From a bacterium (GTDB taxonomy: Bacteria > Bacillota > Clostridia > Oscillospirales > Oscillospiraceae): a stretch of 64,000 nucleotides of DNA. Of this stretch, positions 12,983-29,946 are shown in pieces. The notes under the pieces are model-generated. The model searched no databases. It saw only the letters and a list, made by a program, of their open reading frames with translations, and was not told where the DNA came from. The stretch is from positions 1,302 to 65,301 of the forward strand of contig CAVJKX010000008.1 in the NCBI GenBank assembly GCA_963650165.1, in the 5' to 3' direction. The stretch's first letter is position 1. Each line of letters begins with the position of its first letter. The position numbers were made by a program, and so were the translations under genes.

Positions 12983-13053
12983 GAGGCAGATATAGTAAAC
13001 GCTCATGATTTGATAGTTTTTTTGCATCGTTTTCGGACGATCAGATACGAAAA

Positions 13054-13080
13054 ACCCGCTGCTTTCAAAAAGCAGCGGGT
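13054..13080. terminator. terminator closing the 16.8-kb minus-strand operon (and the LysR gene)
   Basis: ACCCGCTGCTTT-caaaa-AGCAGCGGGT; on the minus strand it is followed by TTTTCG. Confidence 0.7.
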
Positions 13081-13101
13081 CAAATTTTGCCGTTTTTCGG
13101 T

Positions 13102-14406
13102 TTATTGGTGGTACAGATATCTCTGCGGAGCTTCCTTTGCCTTTTCGTACAGGGTCTCGGAGACGATGGCGCCGTACTGATCGCGCAGCTGCGTGCCGTA
13201 GCTTTCGGGCAGGCTGCCGCCGGCGAGGGCGATCTGCGATGCCGGAACGCTGCACTTTATCGTCGCGTCGGAATCGTTATACACTGAGGAGACATAGTCC
13301 CTTTCGGTATTGACCGCGATCGAGCCGAGCGTTATCCTGTCGAAGTTTACCGTCAGCTTTTCGCCGCTCATATTGAGCCTGCACTTCACCTCGGTGATGA
13401 TGCCCGGCACCCAGACGGAAAACTGCGTCTTGTATCCGTCGTCGCCGTAGCTTTCAAAGCAGCTGAGATACTTCTGGTTCAGGTTCCGGTTGAGCGAGGA
13501 GCTGTAGGCCATGTCGAGCCTGTAGGTCTTTTTGCTGCCGTAACCGTTTTTGTCGATGTAGCTCATATCGATATAAAAGGTCTGCACCTCGTCGTTGTCG
13601 GCATAGCTGAGATCGATGGGGTTTTCCACATTGAAATAGAAGGTGTATTTATACATGCTCTCCTCGTCGCTGTGGGCATAGGCCTGATTTATATCGCCGT
13701 CGGAGTCCGCGACGCATTTTTTGAGCACGGCAGTGTCGATCACCGCGTTGTACTGGTCTCTGAACTGGCCGGCATATTCCGTGCCGCTGCCGGCGGCTAT
13801 GCTGCTCATTTCCTTTTCGGTGAGCCCCTCTCCGCCGTGCTCGGCAAAGTAGGGCGAATTGCTCTCGTCGATGACCGAGCTCTCCATCGAGCAGTATATT
13901 CTCGCCGAGGAATCGTTGTAGGCCGAGGAGACATAGTCGGTGTTGCTGTTTATCCGTTTGCCGTTGCAGTAGATGCTCTGCACCTCGAACGACAGGCGCT
14001 CGCCGCCGTCCATGTTGAGCAGTATGTCTATCCTGCTGAGCTTGCCGGGGAGCGTAACATCGTAGCTCGTGTAGCATTCATCGTCGTTCGGCCTTATGAA
14101 ATGCTCCTTGAGAAAGTCGGCGTTTTTATTTGAGCTGCCGTTCCACGACATGTCAAAGCGCTCGCTTTTTTCGCTCTGATAACCGTTCTGACCCTTGTAA
14201 TAATAGTCAAAGTACAGGACGTTCACGGCGTCCCTGTCCATGCTCGTTGAGTCGCAGGGATTGCTGACCTTGATGTTCACCGTGTAGACGTATTCGCTCA
14301 CGCCGTCGGCCGCGCCGTTTGCCGCGAGCGCCGAGGGCGCTGCGGCAAGGGACAGGGCAAGGCACACGGCGCACAGGAGCGCAGTCGTTTTTCTGATCCT
14401 TTTCAC
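13102..14406 (-). CDS. secreted protein with two internal ~200-aa repeats, unknown family (434 aa)
   Basis: GTG start 3 nt after the giant gene's stop. Signal peptide MKRIRKTTALLCAVCLALSLAAAPSALA. Repeat 1 (YVYTVNIKVSNP...LYFDYYYKGQNGYQSEKSERFDMSW...DYVSSAYNDSSARIYCS) parallels repeat 2 (YKYTFYFNVENP...FYIDMSYIDKNGYGSKKTYRLDMAY...DYVSSVYNDSDATIKCS). Each repeat is followed by a (Q)FRDQYNAVI / LRDQYGAIV segment. Confidence 0.8.
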   Translation of the reverse strand: MKRIRKTTALLCAVCLALSLAAAPSALAANGAADGVSEYVYTVNIKVSNPCDSTSMDRDAVNVLYFDYYYKGQNGYQSEKSERFDMSWNGSSNKNADFLKEHFIRPNDDECYTSYDVTLPGKLSRIDILLNMDGGERLSFEVQSIYCNGKRINSNTDYVSSAYNDSSARIYCSMESSVIDESNSPYFAEHGGEGLTEKEMSSIAAGSGTEYAGQFRDQYNAVIDTAVLKKCVADSDGDINQAYAHSDEESMYKYTFYFNVENPIDLSYADNDEVQTFYIDMSYIDKNGYGSKKTYRLDMAYSSSLNRNLNQKYLSCFESYGDDGYKTQFSVWVPGIITEVKCRLNMSGEKLTVNFDRITLGSIAVNTERDYVSSVYNDSDATIKCSVPASQIALAGGSLPESYGTQLRDQYGAIVSETLYEKAKEAPQRYLYHQ

Positions 14407-14409
14407 GGC

Positions 14410-17400
14410 TCACGCCCCCTTCATATAAACGTCGTAGGCCACAAACTCACGGTTGAGCGCGTTCATGTCGACCTGGCGGTCCTCCCGGACGGCATTGTCG
14501 GTGCGGCTCGCGTAGAGATACACCCTGTTGTCCGTTATGTGGTCGCCGCCGTCGATGACCGCGACCGTGCCCTCGTTGAGGTTCACGCGGTTTCCGTTGA
14601 CGTCGAATACATGCTCCCATGTATTGTAGTCGTCGTTTATCATGCCGTAGTCCTTGCAGGCAAGACCCAGCTTTGCGATCGGATAGGCGGTGTCCTTGGT
14701 CATGGTCGTGGTGTAATACAGATATATCTGCTTTCCGCCGCTGCCCGAATTGAGGGACACGGCCTTTGATCCGTCCGCATCCGCGGCCGAGGTGTATTCG
14801 TCTCGCGCGCTTTCGTAAACGACGCCGTTTACGGTGATCGTTTTCTGATGCGGCTGGCCGACGGTCAGAACGATATCCCTGACGGCCTTTCTCGCAACGC
14901 CCTTGGTGACCTCGGATCTGGTCAGGGTGTATCTCGAGTAGCCGATGTAGATGTATTCGCCGCCCGTGCCGCGGTTTATATCCAGATTAACGCAGATATT
15001 GCAGCCGAGGCTCAGCAGGTTTGCCTGCGCCTCCTTTGCGGTCTTGCCGTGGCCGACGTAGATGGCGCCCATCATCGTCGCCGTATCCTCATAGCTCATG
15101 TGGATAAAGCTCGACACCTCGGTGTCGCCGTAGAGCTTGATATTTGTTCCGCTGCTGTCGGCCTTTGTCGACATTGCCGTCGCGCAGTCGGCCTCATAGA
15201 CGTTCGAGCTCACGCTTATATCCGTTATCGGCATGCCGGGGCTCGCGCCGCCCGAGGTCGTGTAGTAGAGATAATACGAGCCCTTCGGATCGGGTATCAT
15301 GTCTCCGGCCTTGGTGTAGGTCACGGTGCCGACCTGGATAGTCGGCGGGGCTGTCGTCTTGTCGGTGACGTATCTTATTATGCCCGTGATGGCATCCGAC
15401 TGCACGTTCGTTCTCGACACGCCTATGTACGAGACCGTTTCCGGCTTCGCATCGGCGTTCGAGTAAAAGCTCTGCGAGCTGTCGAGCGCGATATTGGCCG
15501 GAATGATCTCGTCGGTGCACTGCGACAGGAGGCTCTGGATACAGTAGTCGCTGCCGGAGGCCTTGAGCAGGGTCTTCATCTCGTCGGTGTAGTCGGAAAG
15601 CGAGCTTCCGGCCGCCTTGCTCATGGTGAAGGTCGAAACGCAGATCGAGGAGATGTATTTTTTCTGCACGGGCGTGGCCTTGCGCTGGTAGATATACACC
15701 GGCGTGAGGCTGTCTCCGCTGGAGATGTACTTGGAATTGGTCGTATTATAGCCGAGGTTGTGCGCCTGCGTGCGGTTCGGGGTCTTGAAATCCTGAACGC
15801 TCACGAAGCCGTCGGGCACCGTGCTGTCGGACGATACGACTATGTCGTCAACGGTCAGGGGCGTTCCGCCCTCCATGGGGCCGAGCACATATATGCCCTT
15901 GCCGCGCACGCCGCTGCTCGACCACGAGACGTTCTCATAGTCCTCGGGCGCAAGCTCCGTCGTCATTTCCTTCTGCTCTATGCCCGTCGACGTGCCGCTG
16001 CCGCTGGCGAACTGATAGGAGTGCGTTGCGTAAATGCCGCGCATGTAATACTCCGCCGCGCTTCCGCCGCTGACCAGATACGGCAGCTCGAACATGACGT
16101 CGCACACTGCATACGCGCCGCTCGAGACCGTTCCGAGATATACGGGAACGTACAGGTTCCCTGGTGCCGAGGTGTACGATGCTATGCCGTATATGGCCCT
16201 GTAGGGATTATGCGTCGTGGTATAGCATATATAGGTCTCCACGTTCTGCGCCCAGCGCTCCTCGGATACCATGCCGTGCACGTCCGAGGGGAGCTTTATT
16301 TTTGCCCCGCAGGTCAGGCTCAGATCGAATTTTTTAAGCTTCAGAGCCTTTATATAATCGTCTGCCGAATTGTTGAGCTTTCCGCTTCCGTTTCCGGCCA
16401 CGAGAACGATGCCGGAGATGTATTCCTCGCCGTCGGTGTATGCAACGGAGGGTCTGAAGTACAGATACACGCCCTGATCGTTCCAGTGCTCGTGGGTCTG
16501 CGAGCTGTGATCCCTTTCAACGGTATTGTCCACCTCGCTGCCGACGTTGAGATTGAAGGCGTTGCCGCCGCAGAAGAGGTTTATGGGCTCGTAGCCCTCG
16601 GGGATATCGTCGAGCGAATACTTCACCAGCAGGTCGGCAAGTATGGGCGAGCCGGCCGACTTATACGAGGTATAGTAGAGCGTATCGCCCGCAGGGGTCG
16701 TTCCGCAGGAGGTGTATGAGGCGCTGCCGTAGAGGAAGGCCGACGAGCTGTTTCTCGCCGATATTCTTATATCCGTCACGGCGTCGGCTGCGTTCGTCGT
16801 CGTCGTATAGCCCAGATAGGTGTATTTCTTCAGCGAGGCGGTGACGGGCGTAAGGTTCACGTCCAGAACATTATAGCCGCCCTTGGTGAGCGCCGCCTTG
16901 GCCGCAGTCTCCGTGCTCTCGACGGAAAGCTTGAGCTTTGAGATATACTGTCCGTCGTTTTTGACCTCCGCGCCGTCGGTATCGGTCTCCTCGCCCTCGT
17001 TTATGACCTTGTCCGTCGTGCGGCAGAACATATAGACCGCGCAGGAATTCGAGCGCGTGTTCGCGTTGAGGTTTGCCGCGGCGACCTCGCCGAAGCACTT
17101 GACGGCCTTATAGCCGAGGGGCGTTGAGTTGTCGTTGTACTGCACCGTTATAAGATCGTCTATCTGCGAGGATTGGATCGGATCGCCCGCGTAGCTGCTC
17201 GTGCTCGTATAAAGGGCGTTCCACCTCTTCGCGTTGCCGCCGTTTATATTGGCCGGGCTTCCGTTCAGATCGACGGCGGTATATTTGACGTATCTGTTGT
17301 TTGCAACGTCGAATATGACCGTCGGTATCGGCGTGAAGTCCTCCGCGTCATCCTCGGTGAAGGTGTCCCATATGTACTTTACAAGCAGCGCGATGAGTAT

Positions 17401-18996
17401 GACGATCATGGCCGCGGCCGCGATATAGCTGAGCACTATGATCGCGCAGCCGAGAACGCCGAGTATCGTGCCCAGCGCGCCCAAGCCCGTGCCGGCGCAG
17501 CAGATCGCCCACATGCTCACCGAACCCGTGAAGGCCGCTGTAAAGACGAACGCGCCTATGGCCGAGGTCACCACGTCAACCAGAACGACCGCGAGACCCA
17601 GAACCAGCGAGGCTATGCCGACCATTGACTTTGCCGTCGAGAGGAAGTTGTCCACATCGTCGGGCGTGGTCAGGGTATTGTATATCTGTCCGGCGGTGTT
17701 CGTCCTGTAGGCGTCCTGCGTGACGGCGACCTTCTGCTCAAAGGCCGTCTGATCGGTGCCTATCCAGACGGACATGCTGTCCTTGCCGCTCTGCGAGGAT
17801 ATCTCCTGCCGTATCGCCTCGGCCTGCTTTTCGGCCTCGGCTATAAGATCCTCGTTGTTCGTCAGATAGACGACGGAGAAGGCTACGCCGCACAGGCGCA
17901 TCATTGCAAGCTGACCGTCGGTGAGGCTGTCCACAAGGGGGTATATCTTCCTCAGATTTGCCGTCTCGTCATAGGATGAGTTGCCGAGCGCAACGATGTA
18001 GTCGGCAAGGCTTGTCGTCTCGTCGTAGGAATACTGACTGAGTATGTTGTAGGCCGCCAGGAAGAGCGCGTCGCCGTCGTTGGTCTCGATCTCGCCGCCG
18101 GTGGCCACATCCTCCGCGAGCTGCTCGTTCATTTCGGTATCGCTCTCGTCGGTGACGCTCGTCTGTGCGATCTTGCCGCCGTTTGCCGCATAGCGCGCGG
18201 CCGCTTCGTTGTAGCTCTGCGAGAAGGACTGGAGGCCGGAGGCGAGCTCCTTTGCAAGGACCTTGTACTGCGCGTCGAGCTTATTGTTGTTATCGCCGCT
18301 TGCAAGCTCCGCCTGCACGGTCGAGGAGGATATCCTCGACGCCCAGTTATCGTCGCCGTAATCGGCGACGCCGGGTACGAGCGCATTGCAGAAGGCAGAC
18401 ACGACCGGAGTGCTCGCGCGGGAGAGTATCTTCTTGACGAAGTCGATGCCGCAGCTGCCGCTGACCATGTAGTCGCCGAGCTTCGTACCGCCGAGCTCAT
18501 CGATGTAGTAGCTGTTGAGTATCTTGACCGCCGCTATGGCCGCGGGGCTTCCGGCACTGTAATTGTCGGCAAACTCGCTGACGGCATAGCTTATCTCCAT
18601 GGGGATGTTCCCGAGCTTTTCCATCGCCTTTTCGGCGACCTCGCTGTAGGAGCAGTCCTGATAGCCGCTGTTCATCTGCAGGAGCGATATATCTGTTATC
18701 GCCTCGTCTGGGTCGGTCGTCGTCTTATAGCCGACGATGTATATCCCGTCGTCGGCGCTGTCGCTGTCATTGCTGCGGTTTATGTTCTTTTTGACGGCGG
18801 TATAGCCTGCCGACTCGCAGCTTTTTATCGCTTCGGCAAGGCTGCCGCCGCTGAACACCTGCACCTCGGAGATGTATTTGGAATCGTTCTCCGCCGTGAC
18901 CGCGACCGCGTTCCCCACGTCCGTGAACAGGAGCGCGAACACCAGCAGCAGGCAGAGCGAGGCTGTGATGAAATGAAGCTTTCTGTTTTCTGTCAT
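14410..18996 (-). CDS. giant (1528 aa) exported membrane protein with a central TM cluster and many copies of the operon's repeat motif
   Basis: ATG at 18996 overlaps the upstream stop (ATGA) and follows a GGAGGCGGGGAG purine run. Signal/anchor LHFITASLCLLLVFALLFT. The N-terminal ~600 aa align by eye with the 744-aa paralogs (YISEVQV...GYKTTTDPDEAITDISLL; RKIYPLVDSLTDGQ vs RYMLYPLVSVLSEGQ; DFTPIP after the TMs). The C-terminal ~880 aa carry repeated YLGYTTT../..YLYYTT..PITDI blades. The track ORF start at 19254 is an extension. Confidence 0.85.
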   Translation of the reverse strand: MTENRKLHFITASLCLLLVFALLFTDVGNAVAVTAENDSKYISEVQVFSGGSLAEAIKSCESAGYTAVKKNINRSNDSDSADDGIYIVGYKTTTDPDEAITDISLLQMNSGYQDCSYSEVAEKAMEKLGNIPMEISYAVSEFADNYSAGSPAAIAAVKILNSYYIDELGGTKLGDYMVSGSCGIDFVKKILSRASTPVVSAFCNALVPGVADYGDDNWASRISSSTVQAELASGDNNNKLDAQYKVLAKELASGLQSFSQSYNEAAARYAANGGKIAQTSVTDESDTEMNEQLAEDVATGGEIETNDGDALFLAAYNILSQYSYDETTSLADYIVALGNSSYDETANLRKIYPLVDSLTDGQLAMMRLCGVAFSVVYLTNNEDLIAEAEKQAEAIRQEISSQSGKDSMSVWIGTDQTAFEQKVAVTQDAYRTNTAGQIYNTLTTPDDVDNFLSTAKSMVGIASLVLGLAVVLVDVVTSAIGAFVFTAAFTGSVSMWAICCAGTGLGALGTILGVLGCAIIVLSYIAAAAMIVILIALLVKYIWDTFTEDDAEDFTPIPTVIFDVANNRYVKYTAVDLNGSPANINGGNAKRWNALYTSTSSYAGDPIQSSQIDDLITVQYNDNSTPLGYKAVKCFGEVAAANLNANTRSNSCAVYMFCRTTDKVINEGEETDTDGAEVKNDGQYISKLKLSVESTETAAKAALTKGGYNVLDVNLTPVTASLKKYTYLGYTTTTNAADAVTDIRISARNSSSAFLYGSASYTSCGTTPAGDTLYYTSYKSAGSPILADLLVKYSLDDIPEGYEPINLFCGGNAFNLNVGSEVDNTVERDHSSQTHEHWNDQGVYLYFRPSVAYTDGEEYISGIVLVAGNGSGKLNNSADDYIKALKLKKFDLSLTCGAKIKLPSDVHGMVSEERWAQNVETYICYTTTHNPYRAIYGIASYTSAPGNLYVPVYLGTVSSGAYAVCDVMFELPYLVSGGSAAEYYMRGIYATHSYQFASGSGTSTGIEQKEMTTELAPEDYENVSWSSSGVRGKGIYVLGPMEGGTPLTVDDIVVSSDSTVPDGFVSVQDFKTPNRTQAHNLGYNTTNSKYISSGDSLTPVYIYQRKATPVQKKYISSICVSTFTMSKAAGSSLSDYTDEMKTLLKASGSDYCIQSLLSQCTDEIIPANIALDSSQSFYSNADAKPETVSYIGVSRTNVQSDAITGIIRYVTDKTTAPPTIQVGTVTYTKAGDMIPDPKGSYYLYYTTSGGASPGMPITDISVSSNVYEADCATAMSTKADSSGTNIKLYGDTEVSSFIHMSYEDTATMMGAIYVGHGKTAKEAQANLLSLGCNICVNLDINRGTGGEYIYIGYSRYTLTRSEVTKGVARKAVRDIVLTVGQPHQKTITVNGVVYESARDEYTSAADADGSKAVSLNSGSGGKQIYLYYTTTMTKDTAYPIAKLGLACKDYGMINDDYNTWEHVFDVNGNRVNLNEGTVAVIDGGDHITDNRVYLYASRTDNAVREDRQVDMNALNREFVAYDVYMKGA

Positions 18997-20462
18997 GCTC
19001 TCCCCGCCTCCTTTTTCTTCTTTCCGCGCCTTACGGCAAACACCGTGAACAGGGTGATCGCCGCCGCACAGGCGCAGATGTAAGCGATATCTCCGCGGCC
19101 GATGGCGGAGGCCACCGCGCGGATGTTGTCCTGACTGAGCGCCGACGATTCGACCTTGTCCTGAGCGTAGCCGTCGTCGAAGCCGATGTAATTCGTATAC
19201 TGGAACTTGTCTATGCCCTTTACGGCAAGGCGTGAGCTCGTGCTCGTCGAGCAAAGCAGGACCGACGAGCCCTCGTAAAAGCCGCCGCAGTACAGATAGG
19301 CCGTAGACGCCGTGCCGTCCTGGAGGCAGAGGTCGTTTGCCTTGCCGTTCACGCTGTTGTCCGTCACGATGAGCTTTCCGGAGGCGTTTATGTCGTTCAT
19401 GCTGTCGACATATATGCCGCCGCCGTTTTTCGACGCGCTGTTGTAGCGGTACTCGCCGCCGATGACGAAGACCCTGTCGGCGTTTATGTACAGCGCGCCG
19501 CCGTTTTTCGCGGCGCTGTTGTAGTACATCCTGCAGCTTTTGAGATATGTGCCCTTGCCGGAGTCGCAGTACACGGCGCCGCCGTGGTCCTCCGTCGTTT
19601 TATTGAACGAGAACACGCACTCGGATATCTCGGCCGTGGCAGAGCCGGCAAGGCACACCGCCCCACCCAGCTCATCGCAGCTGTTCGAGTAAAACTCGGA
19701 CGAGGAGAGCTTCAGGCTCCCGCCGTAGGTATAGATCGCGCCGCCGTCGTCCTCCGCGTAGTTGCCCTCGAAGGTCGCGCTGCTCACGGTAACGGCTGCC
19801 GCGTTTGAGTATATCGCGCCGCCGCAGCACTCGCCGGAGGCGTCGTAGGTACGGTTGCCGTAGAACGAGCCGCCGTTTACGTTGAGCTTGATGGTCGAGC
19901 CGAAGGCGCTTATCGCGCCGCCGTCGTCGGTGGATACGCAGTTGAGTATCGTACCGCCGTTGAAGTTGAGCTCGGAGTTATCCAGGAGGACTATGCCGCC
20001 GCCGCGCGCCTTGTTCGCGCCGTTGCAGATGGCGCCGCCCCTGAAGAGCTTGGACACGGTGTACTCGCCGCTTCTCGAGTCGATAATGGTCATGAGCGAG
20101 CCGACGTAGATGACCGCTCCGCCGGAGACCGGTGACGAGAGGTTCCTGTCGATGCTGTATCCGTTGAGGTCGAGCGTCAGCATTTTCGCGCTCGAGTAGC
20201 ACAGCGCACCGTCTCTGTATCCGTCGCCGCTGCCGAAGGAGCCGGAGTCCGACGCCTTCCAGTTCTGACGGAGCGTGAAGGTGACCTCGCCGCTCTTTCC
20301 GAACTCGATCGCTCTTTTCCATGCATCCTCGAAGGAGGTGCAGTCGATCGTCGTGCCGTTTGAGCTGACCGTGGCGCAGATGCCGTCGGCACAGACCGGG
20401 ACGCACAGCAGCGCGCACATGACGAGCGCCAGCGCAAAAGATATGGTTTTTCTAAATTTCAT
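18993..20462 (-). CDS. Pmp-repeat (GGAI/FxxN) right-handed beta-helix protein with signal peptide and C-terminal TM anchor
   Basis: MKFRKTISFALALVMCALLCVPVCA signal. At least 8 GGA(I/V/L) repeats (GGAVIY, GGAICN, GGAISAF, GGAIYSN, GGAIYTY, GGAVCL, GGAVYC, GGALYI, GGGIYV), interleaved with F.GN/F.SN/F.FN. C-terminus IAYICACAAAITLFTVFAV-RRGKKKKE. Start 20462 is preferred (AAGGA RBS 9 nt upstream) over 20471. Confidence 0.8.
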   Translation of the reverse strand: MKFRKTISFALALVMCALLCVPVCADGICATVSSNGTTIDCTSFEDAWKRAIEFGKSGEVTFTLRQNWKASDSGSFGSGDGYRDGALCYSSAKMLTLDLNGYSIDRNLSSPVSGGAVIYVGSLMTIIDSRSGEYTVSKLFRGGAICNGANKARGGGIVLLDNSELNFNGGTILNCVSTDDGGAISAFGSTIKLNVNGGSFYGNRTYDASGECCGGAIYSNAAAVTVSSATFEGNYAEDDGGAIYTYGGSLKLSSSEFYSNSCDELGGAVCLAGSATAEISECVFSFNKTTEDHGGAVYCDSGKGTYLKSCRMYYNSAAKNGGALYINADRVFVIGGEYRYNSASKNGGGIYVDSMNDINASGKLIVTDNSVNGKANDLCLQDGTASTAYLYCGGFYEGSSVLLCSTSTSSRLAVKGIDKFQYTNYIGFDDGYAQDKVESSALSQDNIRAVASAIGRGDIAYICACAAAITLFTVFAVRRGKKKKEAGRA

Positions 20463-20499
20463 CAGAATCATTCCTTATGCGGATTCTGTGCCGGGAGTT

Positions 20500-22734
20500 T
20501 CAGGTCTCTTCGCCCTGAAGCTTTTTCTTTTTGACCTCGACTCCGGCGAAGAAGGCCGCGATGCCGATAACGGCAGCCGCCGCGACACTTATGAGTATGT
20601 GGCTGCTGTTGGAGAACACGCTGCCGGCAAAGGCGTTCTCGTCTACGTTGTAGAACAGATAGATGCCGCTCCTGCCGTCGGCAAAGGTGTAGCCGAGCTG
20701 CTTATTGGTGAGGTTCTGCGCAACGTTTTCGCCGAACATGGAAAGTGCCGCGCTGCTTTCCTTGGGTATGCTGCTGCTTTCGTACTGCACGTTGAGCCCC
20801 TGCGTTACGATGGGGTCGCCGGCGGCCTTGTCCTTTGTGGTGTACAGCGCCACCCACTGGCGGCCGACGTCGCCGTTGAGATCGCCGTAGTCGCCGAGTA
20901 TCTTCGTCGCGTCGGTGACCATTCCGGCGTCGGCGCGGTTGCATTTGACCGCATCGTAATAGGTGTACACCTTTTCGTCATTGTCGTTTGTCGCCTCGTT
21001 CACCATGTGCGAGGGTATCGGCGTAAACTCGGTGTTGTAGTACTCCTGCAGATCCTGCCAGGTGTTCCAGAGGGAGTAGATTATCAGCGCAACGGTGACG
21101 CAGGTCATTATGGCGCCTGCGATGCGGAAGTACCTCGACCAGTCCTTCGCGTTTCCGAGGCTGCGTCCGACTTCGCAATATTTTTCATCGATCGCCTCGA
21201 CCGCACTCGACGTCTGCTGCATTGTCTCGTACTCCGCGGCGTTCATATCCATCTCAATGGCGGTACCGAGGGCCTTGAAGAGGCCGTCGTGCTCCATCTG
21301 CAGAGGGACTGCCGCATTGCTGAAATGAATGCTCGTTCCCCATGCGGCGGCCATGCCGATGATGGAAAGGCCGACGGCGCCGTACAGGATGAGGCTCGTT
21401 ACGGAGATGTAATCGGCTGCGCTCTTAACGGCGCTGCTGCCGGTGGATGCCTGGAGGCGCAGTGCCTCGTTGGTCAGGGCGACGTCGCCGTCGAAGATCG
21501 AGCGGTCAACGCCGTCGTAGACGGAGTTCTTCTTGCCCTCGTAGTAGCTGAAGTCCATTTCGTCCATGGCCTTCTGCATCGCCTCGTCGCCGTTTATGCC
21601 CAGCGACACGATGAAGTACATGGACAGGAAGTCCAGGCAGGCTCTCTGACCCTCGCTGAGGACGGAGACCAGCGGATAGAGCATGTAGCGGTCGGCGTTC
21701 TGGACGTCGTAGTCCTCGCCCGTTATGAGATCGTAGAGGGATACGCCGTCGTTAGTGAGCTTTGAGAGCAGCTCGTACTGTGTGCCGGCAGCGAACCAGT
21801 TGGTGTATTCAAAATCCTCGTGCGCGGTCTGATATGCCTCGACCTCAGCCTCTGTCGAGGAGAAGCTCACGTCCGCGTTCGTATAGGTCTCAAGGAAGCT
21901 TACATAGCCCGCAAGCTTCGAGGCGATGGCCTTTGCGTCCTCGTCGTACTCCGCGGCAAGCTGCTTTTCGGCCTCGTTGACGGTGAGGTTTTTGCTCTCC
22001 ATCAGCTCGTCGAGCATATCGTCGTAGCTTCCGGCGTTTACATACCTGTCCGTCCAGAGCTCATCGCCACTGTCGGCCGCCATGGCTATGGCCTGCTCGA
22101 TAACGAGGATCGCGTCGGCGTTTGCCTGCATGAGTATGGTGGTCATGTCGGCGGTCTTTGCCTGCTCGTCGGCAGACAGGGCGCTCCACTCCTCGTCGCT
22201 GTACTCTTCCTTTATCTTTTTGAGCAGTGCATCGCCCATGAACTGCTCGCTGTCGTCATCATACAGGAGGTTGAGCAGCTCAAAGGCCGCCTCGGCGCGG
22301 GCCTGACCGGCCTTGTAGTTTGCTCTGAACTCGTTGATGGCGACGACGAAGTCGTCTATAAACAGCTTGATGTTTGCTTTCTGCTCGTCGAGCAGCATCT
22401 GGTAGTCCTGAACGCTGTAGCCGCCCTTCATGTTCATAAGACGCATGTCGGTTATGGCTTCCTCGGGATCGCTTGTCGTCGTGTAGCCGAGATACACGGC
22501 GCGGGCCGTCGAGTGCCAGTCGTCCGCGTCCTCGTTGAGGTCGTAGTCGAGTACCTCGTAGCCGTTTTCCGTGAGCCAGGCCTTAGCCTCGTCGGCCGTT
22601 TTGCCGTAGCTTATGACAACGTCCTTTATATACGTTTGCTTTGACGACGCCGCAAGGACGTCGCTGCAGGTGCTGAAGGTGAGTACCACGGCCAGCATAA
22701 GGCTGAGGACCGCTTTAAATGATCTTTTGAGCAT
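20500..22734 (-). CDS. paralog 3 of the tandem 744-aa exported three-TM protein family
   Basis: MLKRSFKAVLSLMLAVVLTFSTCSDVLA signal; KQTYIKDVVISYGKTADEAKAWLTENGYEVLDYDLNEDADDW..AVYLGYTTTSDPEEAITDMRL. Two internal TMs and a C-terminal TM plus KKKK tail. The track ORF 20500..23175 (891 aa) reads into the previous gene; the true ATG at 22734 lies 2 nt after the upstream stop. Confidence 0.85.
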   Translation of the reverse strand: MLKRSFKAVLSLMLAVVLTFSTCSDVLAASSKQTYIKDVVISYGKTADEAKAWLTENGYEVLDYDLNEDADDWHSTARAVYLGYTTTSDPEEAITDMRLMNMKGGYSVQDYQMLLDEQKANIKLFIDDFVVAINEFRANYKAGQARAEAAFELLNLLYDDDSEQFMGDALLKKIKEEYSDEEWSALSADEQAKTADMTTILMQANADAILVIEQAIAMAADSGDELWTDRYVNAGSYDDMLDELMESKNLTVNEAEKQLAAEYDEDAKAIASKLAGYVSFLETYTNADVSFSSTEAEVEAYQTAHEDFEYTNWFAAGTQYELLSKLTNDGVSLYDLITGEDYDVQNADRYMLYPLVSVLSEGQRACLDFLSMYFIVSLGINGDEAMQKAMDEMDFSYYEGKKNSVYDGVDRSIFDGDVALTNEALRLQASTGSSAVKSAADYISVTSLILYGAVGLSIIGMAAAWGTSIHFSNAAVPLQMEHDGLFKALGTAIEMDMNAAEYETMQQTSSAVEAIDEKYCEVGRSLGNAKDWSRYFRIAGAIMTCVTVALIIYSLWNTWQDLQEYYNTEFTPIPSHMVNEATNDNDEKVYTYYDAVKCNRADAGMVTDATKILGDYGDLNGDVGRQWVALYTTKDKAAGDPIVTQGLNVQYESSSIPKESSAALSMFGENVAQNLTNKQLGYTFADGRSGIYLFYNVDENAFAGSVFSNSSHILISVAAAAVIGIAAFFAGVEVKKKKLQGEET

Positions 22735-22736
22735 TT

Positions 22737-24971
22737 TTACGCCTCCCGTATTTTTTTCTTCTGTACGCTTTCGCCGGCGAAGAAGGCTGCGGCACCGACG
22801 ACGATCGCCGCCGCAACGCTTACAAGGATATAGCTGCTGTCGGAAAATACGCTGCCTGCAAAGGCGCTCTCGTCCACGTTGTAGAACAGGTAAATTCCGC
22901 TCTTGCCGTCGGCATAGGTGTAGCCGAGCTGCTTGTTGGTGAGGTTCTGTGCGACGTTTTCGCCGAACATGGAAAGCGCGGTGCTGCTTTCCTTGGGGAT
23001 GCTGCTGCTTTCGTACTGGACCTGCAGGCCGCCCGTTACGATGGGATCGCCCGCCGCCTTGTCCTTGGTGGTATACAGCGCCACCCACTGGCGGCCGACG
23101 TCGCCGTTTATATCGCCGTAGTCGCCGAGAAGCTTGGTCGCATCGGTCACCATTCCGGCATCGACGCGGTTGCACTTGACGGCATCGTAATATGTGTATA
23201 CCTTTTCGTCGTTATCGTTTGTCGCCTCGTTTACCATGTGCATCGGTATCGGCGTAAACTCCGCGTTGTAGTATTCATTCATATCCTGCCAGGTGTGCCA
23301 GAGCGAATATGCCAGCAGCGCGACGGTGACGCAGGTCATTATGACGCTGGCGGCCGTCATGAGCCTCGAGAGCGTGACCTTGCTCGATGCCTGACGCATC
23401 AGATCATTGCCCTTGGCCATGTTCGTGTCGATCTTGCTCTGGAGCGCCGTCTTTTCGGCGTCGGTCACGGCCTTGGCCATTTTCTCGCCTGCCATCTTGG
23501 CAACATCGTAGTTGCCTTCGCCCTCCCAGTACAGCTCCTGTGCCACATCGAGCAGGGTGGAGTTACACTTATATATCCACATTGCCGTCGTGCACACCAT
23601 GGAGAAGCCGAAAACGCCGTACAGGATGAACGAGGTCGTGGAAACGTGATCCCACTCGGAATCGACGGCGTTCTTGCCGGAGGCCGCCTGGAGACGCAGC
23701 GCCTCGTTTGTCATGGCAACGTCGCCGCCGAAGATCGTGCGGTCTACTCCGTCGTAAACGGAGACCTTGTCGCTGTCGCCGGTGAGGAGCTCATAGGACT
23801 CGGCTGCCTTCTTTGCGGCCTCGTCGCTGTTGATGCCTATCGCAACGAGCTGGTACATGGACAGGAAGTCGATGCAGGCTCTCTGACCCTCGGTCAGGAC
23901 GGAGACCAGCGGATAGAGCATGTAGCGGTCGGCGTTCTGGACGTCGTAGTCATCGCCCGTTATGAGATCATAGAGGGATACGCCGTCGTTAGTGAGCTTT
24001 GAGAGCAGCTCGTACTGCGTGCCGGCCGCGAACCAGCTTGTGTAGTCAAAGTCCTCGTGCGCGGTCTGATATGCCTCGACATCCTCTGCGGACGTCGAGA
24101 AGCTTATCTCGGCCTCGGTGTAGCCTTCAAGGAAGGTCTTGTAGTCGGTAAATTTCGAGGCTATGGCCTTTGCCGTCGTGTCGTACTGCGCGGCAAGCTG
24201 CTTTTCGGCCTCGTTGACGGTGATGTTTTTCTCCGCCATCACGGCGTCGAGCATATCGTCGTAGCTTCCGGCGCTCTTATAGCGCTCGGTCCAGGTGCTG
24301 TCGTTCGTATCGGCCGCCATTGCGATGACGTTCTCGATGGTCAGCACCGCGTCGGCGTTTGCCTGCATGAGGATGGTGGTCATGTCGGCGGTCTTTGCCT
24401 GCTCGTCGGCGGACAGGGCCGCAAACTCCTCGTCGGTATACTCCTCTTTTATCTTGCCGAGCAGCAGATCGCCGAGCAGCATGTCCGTATCGTCGTCATA
24501 CAGGAGGTTGAGCAGATCGTGAGCCGCCTTTGCGCGCTCCTGACCGGCTGCGTAGTTTGCCCTGTACTCGTTTACCGCAACGATGAAGTTATTTATGAAG
24601 AGCTTTATGTTTTCCTTCTGCTCGTCGAGCAGCATCTGGTAGTCCTGAACGCTGTAGCCGCCCTTCATGTTCATAAGGCGCATATCGGTTATGGCTTCCT
24701 CGGGGTCATTGGTCGTCGTGTAGCCGAGGTACACGGCGCGCTCCGTCGAGCGCCAGTCGTCCGCGTCCTCGTTGAGGTCGTAGTCGAGTATCTCGTAGCC
24801 GTTTTCGGTGAGCCATGCCTTGGCCTCGTCTGCCGTTTTGCCGTAGCTTATGACGACGTCCTTTATGTACGTCTGCTTTGACGACGCCGCAAAGGCGTTC
24901 GCGCAGGTGCTGAAGGTGAGCACCACCGCCAGCACGAGACTCAGGATCGCTTTAAAGGATTTGTTGAACAT
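22737..24971 (-). CDS. paralog 2 of the tandem 744-aa exported three-TM protein family
   Basis: Same architecture. N-terminal ~125 aa and C-terminal ~200 aa are nearly identical to the neighbours by eye; the segment between TM1 and TM2 is unrelated. GGGAGG RBS. Confidence 0.85.
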   Translation of the reverse strand: MFNKSFKAILSLVLAVVLTFSTCANAFAASSKQTYIKDVVISYGKTADEAKAWLTENGYEILDYDLNEDADDWRSTERAVYLGYTTTNDPEEAITDMRLMNMKGGYSVQDYQMLLDEQKENIKLFINNFIVAVNEYRANYAAGQERAKAAHDLLNLLYDDDTDMLLGDLLLGKIKEEYTDEEFAALSADEQAKTADMTTILMQANADAVLTIENVIAMAADTNDSTWTERYKSAGSYDDMLDAVMAEKNITVNEAEKQLAAQYDTTAKAIASKFTDYKTFLEGYTEAEISFSTSAEDVEAYQTAHEDFDYTSWFAAGTQYELLSKLTNDGVSLYDLITGDDYDVQNADRYMLYPLVSVLTEGQRACIDFLSMYQLVAIGINSDEAAKKAAESYELLTGDSDKVSVYDGVDRTIFGGDVAMTNEALRLQAASGKNAVDSEWDHVSTTSFILYGVFGFSMVCTTAMWIYKCNSTLLDVAQELYWEGEGNYDVAKMAGEKMAKAVTDAEKTALQSKIDTNMAKGNDLMRQASSKVTLSRLMTAASVIMTCVTVALLAYSLWHTWQDMNEYYNAEFTPIPMHMVNEATNDNDEKVYTYYDAVKCNRVDAGMVTDATKLLGDYGDINGDVGRQWVALYTTKDKAAGDPIVTGGLQVQYESSSIPKESSTALSMFGENVAQNLTNKQLGYTYADGKSGIYLFYNVDESAFAGSVFSDSSYILVSVAAAIVVGAAAFFAGESVQKKKIREA

Positions 24972-24973
24972 CG

Positions 24974-27211
24974 TTATGCCTCCCTGACCTTTTTCTTCTG
25001 CACGCTCTCGCCTGCGAAGAAGGCCGCAACGCCGACGACGATCGCCGCCGCAACGCTTATAAGAATGTAGCTGTTATCGGAGAATACGCTGCCTGCAAAG
25101 GCGCTTTCGTCCACGTTGTAGAACAGGTAGATGCCGCTCTTGCCGTCTGCATAGGTGTAGCCGAGCTGCTTGTTGGTGAGGTTCTGTGCGGAGTCCTCGC
25201 CAAACATGGAAAGCGCGGTGCTGCTCTCCTTGGGGATGCTGCTGCTTTCGTACTGGACATTGAGGCCGTTTGTTACGATGGGATCGCCCGCCGCCTTGTC
25301 CTTGGTGGTGTACAGCGCTACCCACTGGCGGCCGACGTCGCCGTTTATATCGCCGAAGTCGCCGAGTATCTTCGATGCGTCGGTCACCATTCCGGCATCG
25401 ACGCGGTTGCACTTTACTGCGTCGTAATAGGTATATACCTTTTCGTCGCTGTCGTTTGTCGCCTCGTTTACCATGTGCGAGGGGATGGGCGTAAACTCCG
25501 CGTTATAGTATTCATTCATATCCTGCCAGGTGTGCCAGAGGGAGTAGACCATCAGCGCGACGGTGACGCAGGTCATTACGATGCTTGCATAGCGGAGGAC
25601 GCTCGCCCAGGTCTCCGCACGCGAGCCGGCCCGTATCGCGGCATCCGCCTGATCTCTGGCCTCGTTGTATTCGGCAGCCTTTGCGCGCAGATCCAAGCCC
25701 TCTGTCTGCTTGTTGACATCATTGAGTATCTCCGCGGCCTGAGCCTTGACTGAAGTAAGTCTCACAACCTCATTCTCGTATTTATTGGCAAGACTGGCCA
25801 TACGGGCGTACTTGATCCACGATGCCGTCGTTGCCGCGAGCGAAACGGCAAAGGATGCATACAGCGCTATCGAGCCGCCGGAGATCTGATCCCACTCGGT
25901 CTCGACGGCGTTCTTGCCGCTGGCTGCCTGGAGGCGCAGCGCCTCGTTGGTCATGGCGACATCGCCGTCGAAGATGGTGCGGTCAATGCCGTCGTAAACG
26001 GAGGTCTTGAGCTTTTCCATCAGCGCATCGTCCATGCTGTCTATCGCGTCCTTGGCGGAGGCGTCGTTGTTTATGCCCAGCGCCACGATCTGATACATGG
26101 GCAGGAACTCGAGGCAGGCTCTCTGACCCTCGGTCAGGCAGGACAGGAGAGGATAGAGCATGTAGCGGTCGGCTCCCTTGACGTCGTAGTCCTCGCCCGT
26201 TATGAGATCATAGAGGGATATGCCGTCGTTAGTGAGCTGCGTCACGACCGCATACTGGGTGCCGGCGGCGAACCAGTTTATGTAGTCGAAGTCCTCGTGC
26301 GCTGCCTTGTACGCCTCTATCTCCTCCTGCGTGTTTTCAAAGGAGATGTCCGAGTTCGTGTATTTTTCAAGGTAGGTCTTGTAGTTTTCTATCTGTGCCG
26401 CGACGGTCTTTGCGTCCTCGTCGTACTCGGCTGCAAGCTGCTTTTCCGCCTCGTTGACGGTGAGGTTTTTCTCCGCCATCAGCGCGTCGAGCATATCGTC
26501 GTAGCTTCCGGCGCTCTCGTATCTGTCGGTCCAGAGCTTATCGCCGGTGTCGGTCGCCGTTGCTATGGTCTGCTCGATGGTGAGCACGGCGTCTGCGTTT
26601 GCCTGCATGAGAATTGTAGTCATGTCGGCGGTCTTTGCCTGCTCGTCGGCGGACAGGGCGTTCCACTCCTCGTCGGTATACTCTTCCTTTATCTTGTTCA
26701 GAAGCGCATCGCCCATGTACTGCTGGCTGTCGTCGTCGTACAGGAGGTTGAGCACCTCGTAGGCTGCCTTCGCACGCTCCTGACCGGCCGCGTAGTTGGT
26801 CCGGTACTCGTTTATTGCGACGATGAAGTTATTCAGGAAGGTCTTTATATTCTCCTTCTGCTCGTCGAGCAGCATCTGGTAGTCCTGAACACTGTAGCCG
26901 CCCTTCATATTCATAAGGCGCATATCGGTTATGGCTTCCTCGGGGTCGCTCGTCGTCGTATAGCCGAGGTACACGGCACGGGCCGTCGAGCGCCAGTCGT
27001 CCGCGTCCTCGTTGAGGTCGTAGTCGAGTATCTCGTAGCCGTTCTCGGTGAGCCAGGCCTTGGCCTCGGCCGCCGTCTTGCCGTAGCTTATGACAACGTC
27101 CTTTATGTACGTCTGCTTTGACGACGCCGCAAAGACGTTTGCACAGGTGCCGAAGGTGAGCACCACGGCAAGCATAAGGCTTATGACTGTTTTAAATGGT
27201 TTTTTCAGCAT
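24974..27211 (-). CDS. paralog 1 (745 aa) of the tandem exported three-TM protein family
   Basis: Same architecture. AAGGAGG RBS overlapping the stop of the upstream gene. Confidence 0.85.
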   Translation of the reverse strand: MLKKPFKTVISLMLAVVLTFGTCANVFAASSKQTYIKDVVISYGKTAAEAKAWLTENGYEILDYDLNEDADDWRSTARAVYLGYTTTSDPEEAITDMRLMNMKGGYSVQDYQMLLDEQKENIKTFLNNFIVAINEYRTNYAAGQERAKAAYEVLNLLYDDDSQQYMGDALLNKIKEEYTDEEWNALSADEQAKTADMTTILMQANADAVLTIEQTIATATDTGDKLWTDRYESAGSYDDMLDALMAEKNLTVNEAEKQLAAEYDEDAKTVAAQIENYKTYLEKYTNSDISFENTQEEIEAYKAAHEDFDYINWFAAGTQYAVVTQLTNDGISLYDLITGEDYDVKGADRYMLYPLLSCLTEGQRACLEFLPMYQIVALGINNDASAKDAIDSMDDALMEKLKTSVYDGIDRTIFDGDVAMTNEALRLQAASGKNAVETEWDQISGGSIALYASFAVSLAATTASWIKYARMASLANKYENEVVRLTSVKAQAAEILNDVNKQTEGLDLRAKAAEYNEARDQADAAIRAGSRAETWASVLRYASIVMTCVTVALMVYSLWHTWQDMNEYYNAEFTPIPSHMVNEATNDSDEKVYTYYDAVKCNRVDAGMVTDASKILGDFGDINGDVGRQWVALYTTKDKAAGDPIVTNGLNVQYESSSIPKESSTALSMFGEDSAQNLTNKQLGYTYADGKSGIYLFYNVDESAFAGSVFSDNSYILISVAAAIVVGVAAFFAGESVQKKKVREA

Positions 27212-27223
27212 AGCTATGCCTCC

Positions 27224-28543
27224 TTAATTTCCTTTCTTTTTCCCACTGGTGTTTTTTCTGCCTTTTATATAAATCCACGTTCCGATGATCGCCAGGATGA
27301 TAATTATCGAAACGCAGGAAACAGCTATTATGTTTCCGCTGTTTATGACCGACGCGATAAGGCCGGTCTCGCCGTCCTCGTCCCCGGTCCCGTCGTCCGT
27401 GGTCTCCGCCTCGTCCTCCGACTTGTCGATATCGTAAAACTCGTCTACGGCGTCGGCAGCGGGCTCTTCGCTGACCTCGGGCTCCTCCGTTGCCTCGGGT
27501 TCCTCCGTCGCCTCGGGCTCGGCATCGGTGAAAACGCCCTCGTAAAGAGCATAGATATCGCTGTCTCCGGCGGATACGCAGCTGCACGCCTGGGTGCTCG
27601 CGCTCAGCGACTTATACTGGCTCGAGTGTCTTGAAAGGGTTCTGTCATAGGAGGCGTAAACGCCCGCCCAGTCGCCGAGCTCGAAGCTGTCGCCGAAAAA
27701 TCTTCCGGCGGTGACGTCTATGAGCCGCGTGCCCGACTGCCCGTCCCGCTCAAGCTGCACCTCGCCGGAGCTGAGGCCGAAGCCCGTCAGCGCAGCGTCC
27801 GCGTCGGCTGTTCTGCGGTAGGCAAGGTACGCGACCTCGCCGCTGCCGCCGATATCCTTATCTACATAATGATCGCAGCCGAGCGAGGCGGCGCGGTTCA
27901 CGGCCTCGGCCTTCGTGCCGCCGCTGACAAGGCACACGTCGGCGATATAGCGCTGTATGTCCGGGCTCCGGTACATCAGCAGATATATCTCGCTGTTATA
28001 CACGCCCTTGTCGAGGTTGGCAAGCGTTCCGTCGCTCATGCGCACGGGGGTCGAGCCGTCGTTTCGCAGCGACAGCACCTCGTCGGTATCGGAAAAGCCG
28101 GACGCCGTGTCCAGCGACGTGATCCTGCCGCCCGCCGCACCGTCGCGCGTATAGTAAAGGTACAGCGCCGTGCCGCCGTTTCCGTAGTTGAGGCTGTTTT
28201 CCGAGGCAAGGCTGTAGCTGCATCCGTCATAGCTGAGCGTCTGGCTACACTGCGTTGAAACGACGAGACCGGTTATCGCGTTCGAGCCCTTTTTATAGCC
28301 CAGATACACGGCGCTTCCGTCACTTGAGACAAGATTCAGTCCCTGAAACAGGACCGAGTAGCCCCGGCTTTCGAGGTTCGATCTCCCCTCCGTTCCGACC
28401 GCAATGCTGATCTCGGATATATAGCTCGTCTTTGCGTAGGCGCAGACGCTCAGGCTGCCCGCCGCCGTCAGCACGAGCAGCAGCACGCTCAGCGACCTGA
28501 GCGCATTAGCGAATAGTTTTTTCTTTTTGATCAAGGTCTTCAC
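27224..28543 (-). CDS. exported protein (439 aa) with repeat-motif domains, acidic EPEATEEPEATEEPEVSEEP linker and C-terminal TM anchor
   Basis: GTG start. Signal MKTLIKKKKLFANALRSLSVLLLVLTAAGSLSVCAYA. TSYISEISIAVG...GYSVL...AVYLGYKKGSNAITGLVV; ALYLYYTRDGAAGGRITSLD; RYIADVCLVSGGTKAEAVNRAASLGC...VAYLAYRRTADADAALTGFGL. C-terminus IIAVSCVSIIIILAIIGTWIYI-KGRKNTSGKKKGN. Confidence 0.8.
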   Translation of the reverse strand: MKTLIKKKKLFANALRSLSVLLLVLTAAGSLSVCAYAKTSYISEISIAVGTEGRSNLESRGYSVLFQGLNLVSSDGSAVYLGYKKGSNAITGLVVSTQCSQTLSYDGCSYSLASENSLNYGNGGTALYLYYTRDGAAGGRITSLDTASGFSDTDEVLSLRNDGSTPVRMSDGTLANLDKGVYNSEIYLLMYRSPDIQRYIADVCLVSGGTKAEAVNRAASLGCDHYVDKDIGGSGEVAYLAYRRTADADAALTGFGLSSGEVQLERDGQSGTRLIDVTAGRFFGDSFELGDWAGVYASYDRTLSRHSSQYKSLSASTQACSCVSAGDSDIYALYEGVFTDAEPEATEEPEATEEPEVSEEPAADAVDEFYDIDKSEDEAETTDDGTGDEDGETGLIASVINSGNIIAVSCVSIIIILAIIGTWIYIKGRKNTSGKKKGN

Positions 28544-29857: not shown

Positions 29858-29917
29858 CCGGCGCTCTCCTCTCACCATAAACGCAGCTCAATGCGCATGA
29901 TATAACTTTGACATAGT

Positions 29918-29946
29918 ATTGTACCATCGTGATTATTCAACGTCAA
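29918..29946 (-). promoter_or_regulatory. strong sigma-A-type promoter of the nine-gene operon
   Basis: Minus strand: TTGACG (29946-29941), 17-nt spacer, TACAAT (29923-29918), ~60 nt upstream of the first ATG. Confidence 0.55.

Follow-up and report, generated by a model that had tools for sequence, protein, structure and literature searches.

The stretch of DNA analysed here (the window) comprises 64,000 nucleotides (nt) of an Oscillospiraceae genome (assembly GCA_963650165.1, contig CAVJKX010000008.1, positions 1,302 to 65,301). Between its positions 14410 and 28543 lie five minus-strand genes whose products carry a recurring motif, together with one gene, p492, whose product lacks it (Table 1). 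An open reading frame (ORF) check returned all five on the strand and at the positions given by the initial annotation. They encode a 439-residue protein (p439), three paralogs (A to C) and a giant protein. The giant starts at MTENRK, with AGGAGG upstream, which gives 1528 amino acids (aa); Paralog C starts at MLKRSF after a GGAGG-like site, and the longer listed ORF is an upstream extension. Our analysis identifies the motif as the probable blade signature of three-bladed β-prisms of the MABP type, of which the five proteins hold nine complete copies and one partial copy.

Table 1. Genes, prism domains and putative signals of the locus. Positions are those of the window; TM, transmembrane; HMM, hidden Markov model.
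Feature	Positions	Strand	Description	Basis
227-aa polytopic membrane protein	29195-29878	-	First operon gene	
PrsW-family intramembrane metalloprotease	28554-29207	-	Second operon gene	Pfam PF13367
p439	27224-28543	-	Signal peptide, complete prism, second blade-A unit, acidic linker, C-terminal TM anchor	
p439 first prism (aa 36-192)	27968-28438	-	Complete prism	hhalign to giant D4
p439 second unit (aa 193-340)		-	Blade A and divergent remainder	
parA (Paralog A, 745 aa)	24974-27211	-	Signal peptide, prism N-half 26876-27127, insertion 25496-26875, C-half 25115-25495, C-terminal TM anchor	
parB (Paralog B, 744 aa)	22737-24971	-	Layout as parA; prism N-half 24636-24887, C-half 22878-23258	
parC (Paralog C, 744 aa)	20500-22734	-	Layout as parA; prism N-half 22399-22650, C-half 20647-21027	
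p492	18993-20471	-	Exported; polymorphic-membrane-protein repeats (β-helix), C-terminal TM anchor; between paralogs and giant	
Giant (1528 aa)	14410-18996	-	Signal peptide, split prism D0, helical ectodomain, ~95-aa hydrophobic block, tandem D1-D4	ORF and start codon, hydropathy, AlphaFold2 model, unit HMM matches
Giant D0, N-half (aa 34-117)	18646-18897	-	Strand 1, blade A, GY strand of blade B	Unit HMM, conditional E-value 8.4e-28
Insertion in giant D0	17356-18645	-	Helical ectodomain (aa 118-451) and hydrophobic transmembrane block (aa 452-547)	Hydropathy
Giant D0, C-half (aa 556-662)	17011-17331	-	Rest of blade B and blade C, AVYMFCR strand last	Homology to paralog C-half
Giant D1 (aa 678-856)	16429-16965	-	Prism	Model, hhalign to outside MABP prisms, PDB profile matches
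Giant D2 (aa 857-1108)	15673-16428	-	Prism enlarged by insertions	hhalign to D1, unit HMM
Giant D3 (aa 1109-1302)	15091-15672	-	Prism with three-helix insertion in blade A	hhalign, model DSSP
Giant D4 (aa 1303-1504)	14485-15090	-	Prism; xLN loops LDIN, SLNSG, NLNEG	hhalign, outside-blade HMM, conservation
g434	13102-14406	-	Last operon gene; exported; two homologous ~190-aa domains	
Sigma-70-like promoter match	29918-29946	-	TTGACG, 17 nt, TACAAT, with TG	Consensus match only
Intrinsic-terminator-like hairpin	13053-13081	-	13 pairs and a T run, 21 nt past the g434 stop	

We searched for the unit with an HMM seeded with residues 26-112 of one paralog and iterated over the local proteins and 220 homologues. 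In its full form the unit spans ~85 residues and is made of a YIxDVxV strand, a helix, a GY strand, a YLGYTTT strand and an AITDI strand. Ten matches were obtained: five in the giant (34-117, 679-751, 852-943, 1300-1382 and a weak one at 1111-1209, 0.0036), one in each paralog (residues 27-112) and two in p439 (36-100 and 197-256). Conditional E-values in the iterated search ranged from 1e-6 to 1e-36, the weak copy at 1111-1209 being seen only in a six-frame scan. That scan covered 488 ORF segments of at least 60 aa from the whole window and returned nothing beyond the five proteins. A second HMM, built solely on blades of outside proteins unrelated to these, found 13 blades with a positive score in the five proteins, among them two blades of D4 (19.5 and 14.1 bits), two of the first prism of p439 and blade A of its second unit; in residue-shuffled controls (n=100) it gave 0.22 matches on average and 2 at most. 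The shorter YLxYT...PIxDI hairpins were placed manually, guided by the model's DSSP string and the profile alignments. By this count the giant has 15 blades, the paralogs together 9 and p439 5-6, or ~30 in all, in line with the claim that the motif occurs more than 20 times in five proteins.

One could read this recurrence as a chance or compositional effect of Tyr/Thr-rich β-strand sequence, with no homologous module behind it. The short hairpin motif is indeed degenerate and many blades were assigned by eye; a strict regular expression for the hairpin finds only 8 instances in the five proteins, an under-count for which reason the HMMs were used instead. The unit E-values, the confinement of the matches to the five proteins, the shuffle control, hhalign probabilities of 88-99% between domains and the preservation of the pattern across 74 homologues all contradict it. 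The recurrence is far beyond chance, and these controls refute the compositional explanation, to which we give practically no weight.

The giant was modelled with AlphaFold2 over residues 615-1528, using an alignment of 74 sequences. The model is confident (mean predicted local distance difference test score, pLDDT, 88.7; predicted template modelling score, pTM, 0.83) and nearly all β, with short helices in every blade A. Used whole (914 residues) as a Foldseek query against the PDB, it matched only 8b6v (E 1.7e-5) and 8b6u (2.4e-5) at E <= 0.001, both of them Mpf2Ba1, over ~203 aligned columns at 20% identity; rank 3 was 2qp2 (Plu-MACPF, E 0.019). Lower matches included 3tow, the MABP domain of MVB12B (TM-score 0.44 normalised to the target), and 6sb4, the P2 domain of perforin-2 (E 7.6), which we take to contain a MABP prism. 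Among viral structures, none was matched at E <= 0.001. The three top entries, 8b6v, 8b6u and 2qp2, all carry a C-terminal MABP-type prism (PMC10344926, PMC2881412); that of Mpf2Ba1 superposes on those of 2qp2 and 3tow (PMC10344926), and the MABP domain was defined on the 2qp2 prism (PMC2881412).

An HMM of the first tandem domain, D1 (alignment of 21 sequences), searched against all PDB sequences, gave three matches at E <= 10: Mpf2Ba1 twice (0.013 and 0.051) and MVB12B (1.1), the latter on the AIxDIRI strand. Position 6 of D1 aligns to chain residue 309 of Mpf2Ba1, which converts to residue 338 of the full-length protein, where the prism begins according to PMC10344926. A homology search with the Mpf2Ba1 prism fragment yielded eight small proteins; one is annotated PF10240, and several consist of a solo prism with three blades. 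A five-sequence alignment of Mpf2Ba1 prism homologues served as the profile of outside prisms; hhalign aligned it to D1 with a probability of 90.9% (E 1.2e-6, 116 columns, in register from strand 1) and to D4 with 96.7% (E 3.7e-10, 111 columns). The initial annotation had suggested a MABP-type β-prism; three independent tests (Foldseek, the PDB sequence profile and the profile-profile comparison) uphold that suggestion, and structure prediction gives a confident fold with MABP-prism-bearing proteins at ranks 1-3.

Scans of the whole giant, the paralogs and p439 with Pfam and NCBIfam gave no family, and neither PF10240 nor PF22356 appeared at E <= 1; sub-threshold whole-protein matches (SOR, MrpH_C and DUF families) were judged to be noise and none was accepted. 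The Pfam controls behaved as they should: MVB12B matched PF10240 at 2e-62, and the Mpf2Ba1 fragment matched PF22356 at 2.3e-6 and PF10240 at 1e-4. For this control, two Mpf2Ba1 fragments were joined by the filler PTPP, replaced by X in the homology search. Since the window domains score below thresholds that the controls pass, we file them, on their sequences, as divergent members of the MABP/MACPF-prism superfamily that fall outside both Pfam families as currently defined.

Three-fold β-prisms also occur in jacalin-like lectins, in domain II of Cry delta-endotoxins and in Vibrio cholerae cytolysin, so the window domains might belong to one of these classes and resemble MABP prisms by convergence. 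Cry1A.2 (6wpc, E 7.6) and V. cholerae cytolysin (7yl9, E 9.4) do stand near the bottom of the Foldseek list, but five to six orders of magnitude behind Mpf2Ba1. The sequence profile and the profile-profile comparison pick MABP-type prisms only, in register from the first strand, and the PxGY and DLN signatures described below belong to MABP/MACPF prisms (PMC2881412, PMC10344926). We regard membership in another prism class as highly improbable.

A MABP domain is recognised by three homologous β-sheet subdomains within ~150 residues (PMC2881412). The initial annotation had treated its unit of 80-100 aa as a free-standing, blade-like repeat, a view that profile-profile comparison overturned: the unit is the first third of a larger domain, namely strand 1 and blade A of a three-bladed β-prism of 150-250 residues. 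Each blade follows the order GY strand, D/N-L-N loop, aromatic YLxY strand and IxDIxV strand, and the prism closes by an N-terminal YIxxIxV strand lying onto a C-terminal YLYF strand. Sequence and model DSSP display three successive GY...xLN...YLxY...IxDI segments in each of D1-D4 and in the first prism of p439, and secondary hhalign alignments are shifted by one blade.

Domain borders were set by hhalign on slices of the 74-sequence alignment of giant homologues. D1-D4 are homologous to one another over 105-163 columns, with probabilities of 88-99% for most pairs: 98.7% over 156 columns for D1-D4, 98.4% over 163 columns for D1-D2, 99.0% for D3-D4 and 97.8% for D1-D3, the D2-D4 match being weak (24.9%). 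The first prism of p439 aligns to giant D4 with 99.2% over 154 columns; in its second unit only the first ~60 residues, which form blade A, can be aligned (98.0%). Between the prisms and the membrane anchor of p439 lies an acidic, Pro/Glu-rich linker (aa 341-392, positions 27368-27523, EPEATEEPEATEEPEVSEEP) with a net charge of -24; a weak Pfam match of this linker to trypanosome procyclin (PARP) was rejected as a spurious effect of that composition.

The paralogs are built differently. Their N-terminal part aligns to columns 3-78 of D1 (99.1%) and their C-terminal ectodomain (residues 572-712) to columns 96-171 (95.7%). As the two parts match successive columns of D1, the paralogs appear to hold one prism each, cut in two inside blade B. 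The same arrangement is recognised in the first 662 residues of the giant (D0), whose first 680 aa resemble paralog genes of related loci by tblastn and whose C-half keeps conserved PLGY and ANLNAN loops. The insertion is ~460 residues long in the paralogs and ~440 in the giant; in Paralog A it consists of a helical ectodomain and a hairpin of the form TM1-loop-TM2. The N- and C-halves would co-fold into a single prism.

Two signatures run through these domains. The first, PxGY, sits on the second strand of the MABP blade (PMC2881412). It occurs in the giant as PLGY (626-629), PEGY (799-802) and PDGF (1061-1064), and at least 90% of the 74 homologues conserve its G and its Y; blade A keeps only GY. 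In blade A a helix (consensus TETAAKAxLTK) replaces the loop that precedes PxGY in canonical prisms, and in the alignment to the outside prisms this helix, TETAAKAALTKG, falls on the canonical-prism loop GGSSDISPDDP. The second signature is the DLN loop, which in Mpf2Ba1 and its MACPF-prism relatives coordinates Mg2+ or Ca2+ on the three-fold axis (PMC10344926). Loops of this type are DYDLN, GDINGD and QNLTN in the paralogs, VNLTP and AFNLN in D1, and those of D4 listed in Table 1; some blades of D2 and D3 have no clear one. DLN/NLN/xLN loops are conserved in at least 70-90% of the 74 homologues and rank among the most conserved positions in the alignments of 74 giant and 53 paralog homologues. 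By analogy with Mpf2Ba1, the window prisms may bind metal at their xLN loops.

According to hydropathy analysis, all seven exported proteins of the cluster start with a signal-peptide-like segment. The paralogs have further hydrophobic segments at ~442-466 and 534-558, and their C-terminal anchor (708-738) precedes a tail rich in lysine; segment 442-466 passes the hydropathy threshold in Paralogs B and C, and the model of Paralog A has a helix at 445-467. The giant has a hydrophobic block of ~95 residues (452-547), and p439 and p492 end in C-terminal anchors. The signal peptides and TM anchors argue for surface display of the prisms, which the initial annotation had proposed for a possible membrane- or glycan-binding module, within the limits of a predicted topology. 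If the N-terminus lies outside, the helical domain and the two prism halves would be extracellular and the TM1-TM2 loop alone cytoplasmic. Across the three paralogs, identity is 94% and 87% in the prism halves, 62% in the helical ectodomain and 9% in the TM1-TM2 loop. This hypervariable loop (aa 468-530 of Paralog A, ~25622-25810, and the same region of Paralogs B and C) is predicted to be helical and cytoplasmic. A match of the paralog profile to WRB/Get1 in the PDB, over TM1, the charged helix and TM2 (E ~0.02), was judged probably compositional.

The paralog model, searched with Foldseek against the PDB, had its best matches in TTYH and transporters at E 0.57, so that the helical ectodomain has no recognisable solved relative there. 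A long helical domain followed by a hydrophobic helical hairpin nevertheless recalls α-pore-forming toxins of the ClyA/Hbl/AhlB type. The paralogs would then be toxin-like effectors, in which the prism targets a membrane and which are perhaps released by the PrsW-family protease encoded in the same operon. AhlB is present in the Foldseek list of the paralog (rank 46, E 4.1), the paralogs are diversified in tandem, and the prism has its closest solved relatives in pore-forming toxins. Yet none of the paralog matches is significant and AhlB stands at noise level. A cleavable signal peptide, three further hydrophobic segments and a C-terminal tail rich in lysine let one expect a protein that stays integrated in the membrane. 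No gene resembling an immunity gene was identified, and PADLOC and PHROGs give nothing for the paralogs. A toxin role thus seems to us very unlikely.

Several results weigh against the assignment of these domains to MABP-type prisms and against the function that such prisms usually have. Foldseek does not give the range of the MACPF chains that is aligned, so the prism was identified there from the sequence-profile alignment. D2, D3 and the split D0 have no direct hhalign match to the outside prisms and are linked to them through D1 and D4. No window domain reaches a Pfam gathering threshold: in single-domain scans, D1 alone lists PF10240 (E 0.061, 13.3 bits for a cut-off of 22), the best score obtained, and PF22356 is listed for none. 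The paralog model is of low confidence (pLDDT 61.8, 55-77 in the C-half), leaving the hhalign register as the one line of evidence for co-folding of the two halves. Finally, all ectodomains are acidic (isoelectric point, pI, 4.1-5.8; net charge -3 to -40, the latter in the helical domain of Paralog A), as are the prisms taken alone (pI 4.3-5.8). Judged from these sequences, the charge argues against binding of acidic lipids through a basic loop or hairpin, as in MVB12B and MPEG1 (PMC6753088).

These charges also bear on what we consider the main rival interpretation, in which the prisms are rigid, protease-resistant blocks that act as passive spacers in a stalk or in an S-layer-like or wall-spanning lattice and thereby organise the envelope. 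Surface-layer proteins are usually acidic. Moreover, the four-prism tandem array is modelled with confidence, no basic lipid-binding loop was identified in the window prisms, and the paralogs show tandem amplification (1 to 8 matches in each related locus). A mere spacer sits poorly with the conservation pattern, as the prism halves are the most conserved parts of the paralogs, ahead of the helical domain, and the nearly invariant xLN loops at one end of the prism look more like a functional site. In addition, every characterised MABP prism binds a membrane or aids targeting (PMC6753088, PMC10344926, PMC2881412). We consider a purely structural role unlikely.

Among known systems, the C-terminal prism of MACPF proteins (PF22356, MACPF_b-prism; Mpf2Ba1, 8b6u/8b6v; Plu-MACPF/plu1415, 2qp2) gives the best structural and sequence-profile matches. 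It shares with the window domains the start and end strands and the three-bladed build, each blade being composed of GY strand, DLN-type loop, YLCY-type strand and IxDIxV strand. In contrast, the window domains carry the blade A helix, have mostly lost the GAGG turn after DLN and do not reach the PF22356 threshold, and one prism in each paralog and in the giant is split by the long insertion. There is no MACPF domain anywhere in the prism proteins of the window, which, as predicted from their genes, are anchored in the membrane of the producing cell, whereas the MACPF prism is borne by a soluble toxin. Plu-MACPF binds insect cell membranes (as cited in bioRxiv 10.1101/2025.01.06.631476), and the metal-binding DLN end of Mpf2Ba1 is described as its membrane-binding site (PMC10344926).

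The MABP domains of MVB12A/B and DENND4/Crag (PF10240 in part, IPR023341, 3tow) belong to the same fold family (PMC2881412; PMC10344926). MVB12B was recovered both by Foldseek (3tow) and by the D1 profile, and PF10240 is the only Pfam family listed for D1; sequence similarity stays under every curated threshold. The MVB12 and DENND4 proteins are eukaryotic and cytosolic and have a basic loop for binding acidic lipids (as cited in PMC6753088), whereas the window domains are acidic and predicted to be extracellular. MPEG1/perforin-2 offers a closer geometry, as there too a MABP prism lies next to a TM anchor of the same polypeptide, and it is proposed to bind the membrane that anchors the protein (PMC6753088); hydropathy places the split prisms of the window directly between TM2 and TM3. 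Unlike them, the MPEG1 prism has a long basic β-hairpin, has less than 5% sequence similarity to other MABP domains (PMC6753088) and is part of a pore-forming MACPF protein, and its Foldseek match to the window is the weak one reported above. Both the fold and its presence in bacteria, surface proteins of Clostridium among them, have been on record since 2010, and eukaryotes were proposed to have acquired it from bacteria (de Souza and Aravind 2010; PMC2881412). Clostridial 'cell-wall' proteins such as CLOL250_02048 already tie MABP prisms to β-helix surface proteins (PMC2881412). The window presents a parallel in the β-helix protein p492, encoded between the paralogs and the giant, and in two relatives of the giant, of which one matches Beta_helix and another Chlam_PMP. 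Compared by description, the CLOL250_02048 type fuses a single N-terminal MABP domain to the β-helix, while here separate genes of one operon are used. The 2010 description (PMC2881412) includes neither a split-prism architecture nor tandem arrays nor an operon with PrsW.

The prism genes belong to a set of nine that lie head to tail on the minus strand with intergenic gaps of -13 to +28 nt, in the order 227-aa membrane protein, PrsW-family protease, p439, Paralogs A, B and C, p492, giant and g434. The putative promoter is the best match of the region and lies 40 nt upstream of the first gene; another strong terminator-like hairpin is found just upstream of it. The first two genes overlap by 13 nt. 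The 227-aa protein has no Pfam match, and the protease passes the PF13367 threshold (E 1.9e-14, 54.1 bits for a cut-off of 23.5). p492 matches Pfam Chlam_PMP (E 1.4e-11) and NCBIfam POMP_repeat. Its stop codon shares 4 nt (ATGA) with the start codon of the giant, an overlap that suggests translational coupling of the two genes. The halves of g434 are an internal duplication (34% identity, E 5e-29) and this protein has no match in Pfam, NCBIfam or PDB sequences. PADLOC had no match for the cluster proteins and PHROGs returned only two weak families of unknown function, for the PrsW-like protein (E 0.0013), so that a defence system and a prophage were dropped as readings. The operon is flanked by genes at 12026-12982 (+) and 30090-32008 (-), with a divergently placed LysR-family regulator on one side and an AIM24-family protein and a LacI-family regulator on the other.

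To assess conservation, the operon proteins were compared by tblastn with 62 related genome loci, many of them on short contigs, which makes the counts lower bounds. Matches were found for p439 in 31 loci, p492 in 27, the PrsW-family protease in 23, the C-terminal part of the giant and the 227-aa membrane protein in 22 each, and g434 in 14. The 227-aa protein and the protease accompany p439 in ~22 loci, and g434 accompanies the giant in 14. Loci such as L015, L022 and L026 have 7-8 paralog matches, at the top of the range given above, and several metagenome-assembled genomes (MAGs) carry the family on five or more contigs; the variable number and the spread over contigs point to lineage-specific amplification of the paralogs. 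The usable, independent taxon labels are those of MAGs from gut samples (Acutalibacteraceae, Oscillospiraceae and Clostridia), and the assignment is tentative. The titles of many 'cleanbin' assemblies contradict one another in taxon (Escherichia coli, Bacteroides faecis, Collinsella aerofaciens, Hallerella), for loci whose products share 55-96% identity with the proteins of the window; these labels seem unreliable, or the bins contaminated, and they were not trusted.

The family is large. An exhaustive search with the D1 profile gave at least 774 clusters at 50% identity (E <= 1e-3), 145 of them at E <= 1e-30, mostly of proteins of 1400-2200 aa and some of up to 4711 aa. In a Pfam scan of 30 diverse relatives, no Pfam family covered the prism; elsewhere in these proteins one match each was obtained to BspA-type leucine-rich repeats (LRR), DUF285, LRR_8, right-handed β-helix, SpoIIE and polymorphic-membrane-protein (PMP) repeats. 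All of these except SpoIIE are typical of bacterial surface proteins. An apparent fusion of PMP repeats to a prism (P0220, 1155 aa) proved to be a chimera of p492-, giant- and paralog-like pieces, probably an assembly or frameshift artefact, and was not used as evidence.

Taking these results together, we think it likely that the motif is the signature of MABP-type prism blades and that the prisms are best understood as metal-stabilised binding or scaffold modules working with the products of the nine-gene operon. The five proteins would be exported by Sec signal peptides and held in the cytoplasmic membrane, with their prisms outside the cell of a monoderm gut Clostridia. The TM hairpin of the insertion would pin the reassembled split prism onto the outer face of the cell's own membrane, and the four tandem prisms of the giant would project outward, so that D1-D4 and the prism of p439 would reach further out than D0. 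There the prisms may recognise a ligand of the envelope or the environment, such as a glycan or a cation-bridged lipid head group. As the split prism is bracketed by TM2 and TM3, in a geometry like that of MPEG1, a ligand in the own membrane or close to the envelope is plausible for D0. Because the domains are acidic, we consider recognition of a glycan or through a bridging cation more probable than direct electrostatic contact with anionic lipid. No sigma/anti-sigma pair is visible near the gene of the PrsW-family protease, whose substrate may therefore be one of the anchored prism proteins; that it cleaves their anchors is speculation based on conserved co-location alone.

A bolder interpretation, possible although we doubt it, is that the operon encodes an undescribed envelope apparatus of gut Oscillospirales-like Clostridia. 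At its centre would stand a new protein architecture, with blade B split by a helical ectodomain of ~300 aa and a TM hairpin with a hypervariable cytoplasmic loop. The split prism would clamp the outer leaflet and, through this link, report to the cytoplasm or be controlled from it, while the PrsW-family protease would cut the anchors and so shed or activate the arrays. If this were true, the locus would encode a regulated surface-display or signalling system and not passive adhesins.

The analysis brings to light neither a new fold nor a demonstrated new mechanism. What is new with respect to the 2010 record and the libraries searched is the size and coherence of the family, the helix-bearing blade A, the four-prism arrays, the split-prism membrane architecture and the conserved operon. 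MABP prisms are mainly familiar from ESCRT-I, DENND4/Crag, perforin-2 and bacterial MACPF toxins, where they serve in membrane targeting, and the locus reveals a large bacterial reservoir of this fold that curated libraries have missed. The fold is used differently here, as a multi-copy, membrane-anchored surface module in abundant, uncultured gut Clostridia, and the predicted split-domain topology would set a prism on the cell's own membrane. Proteins so far called 'hypothetical' thereby gain a testable identity, with single-prism boundaries for expression and a nine-gene operon as a unit for genetics.

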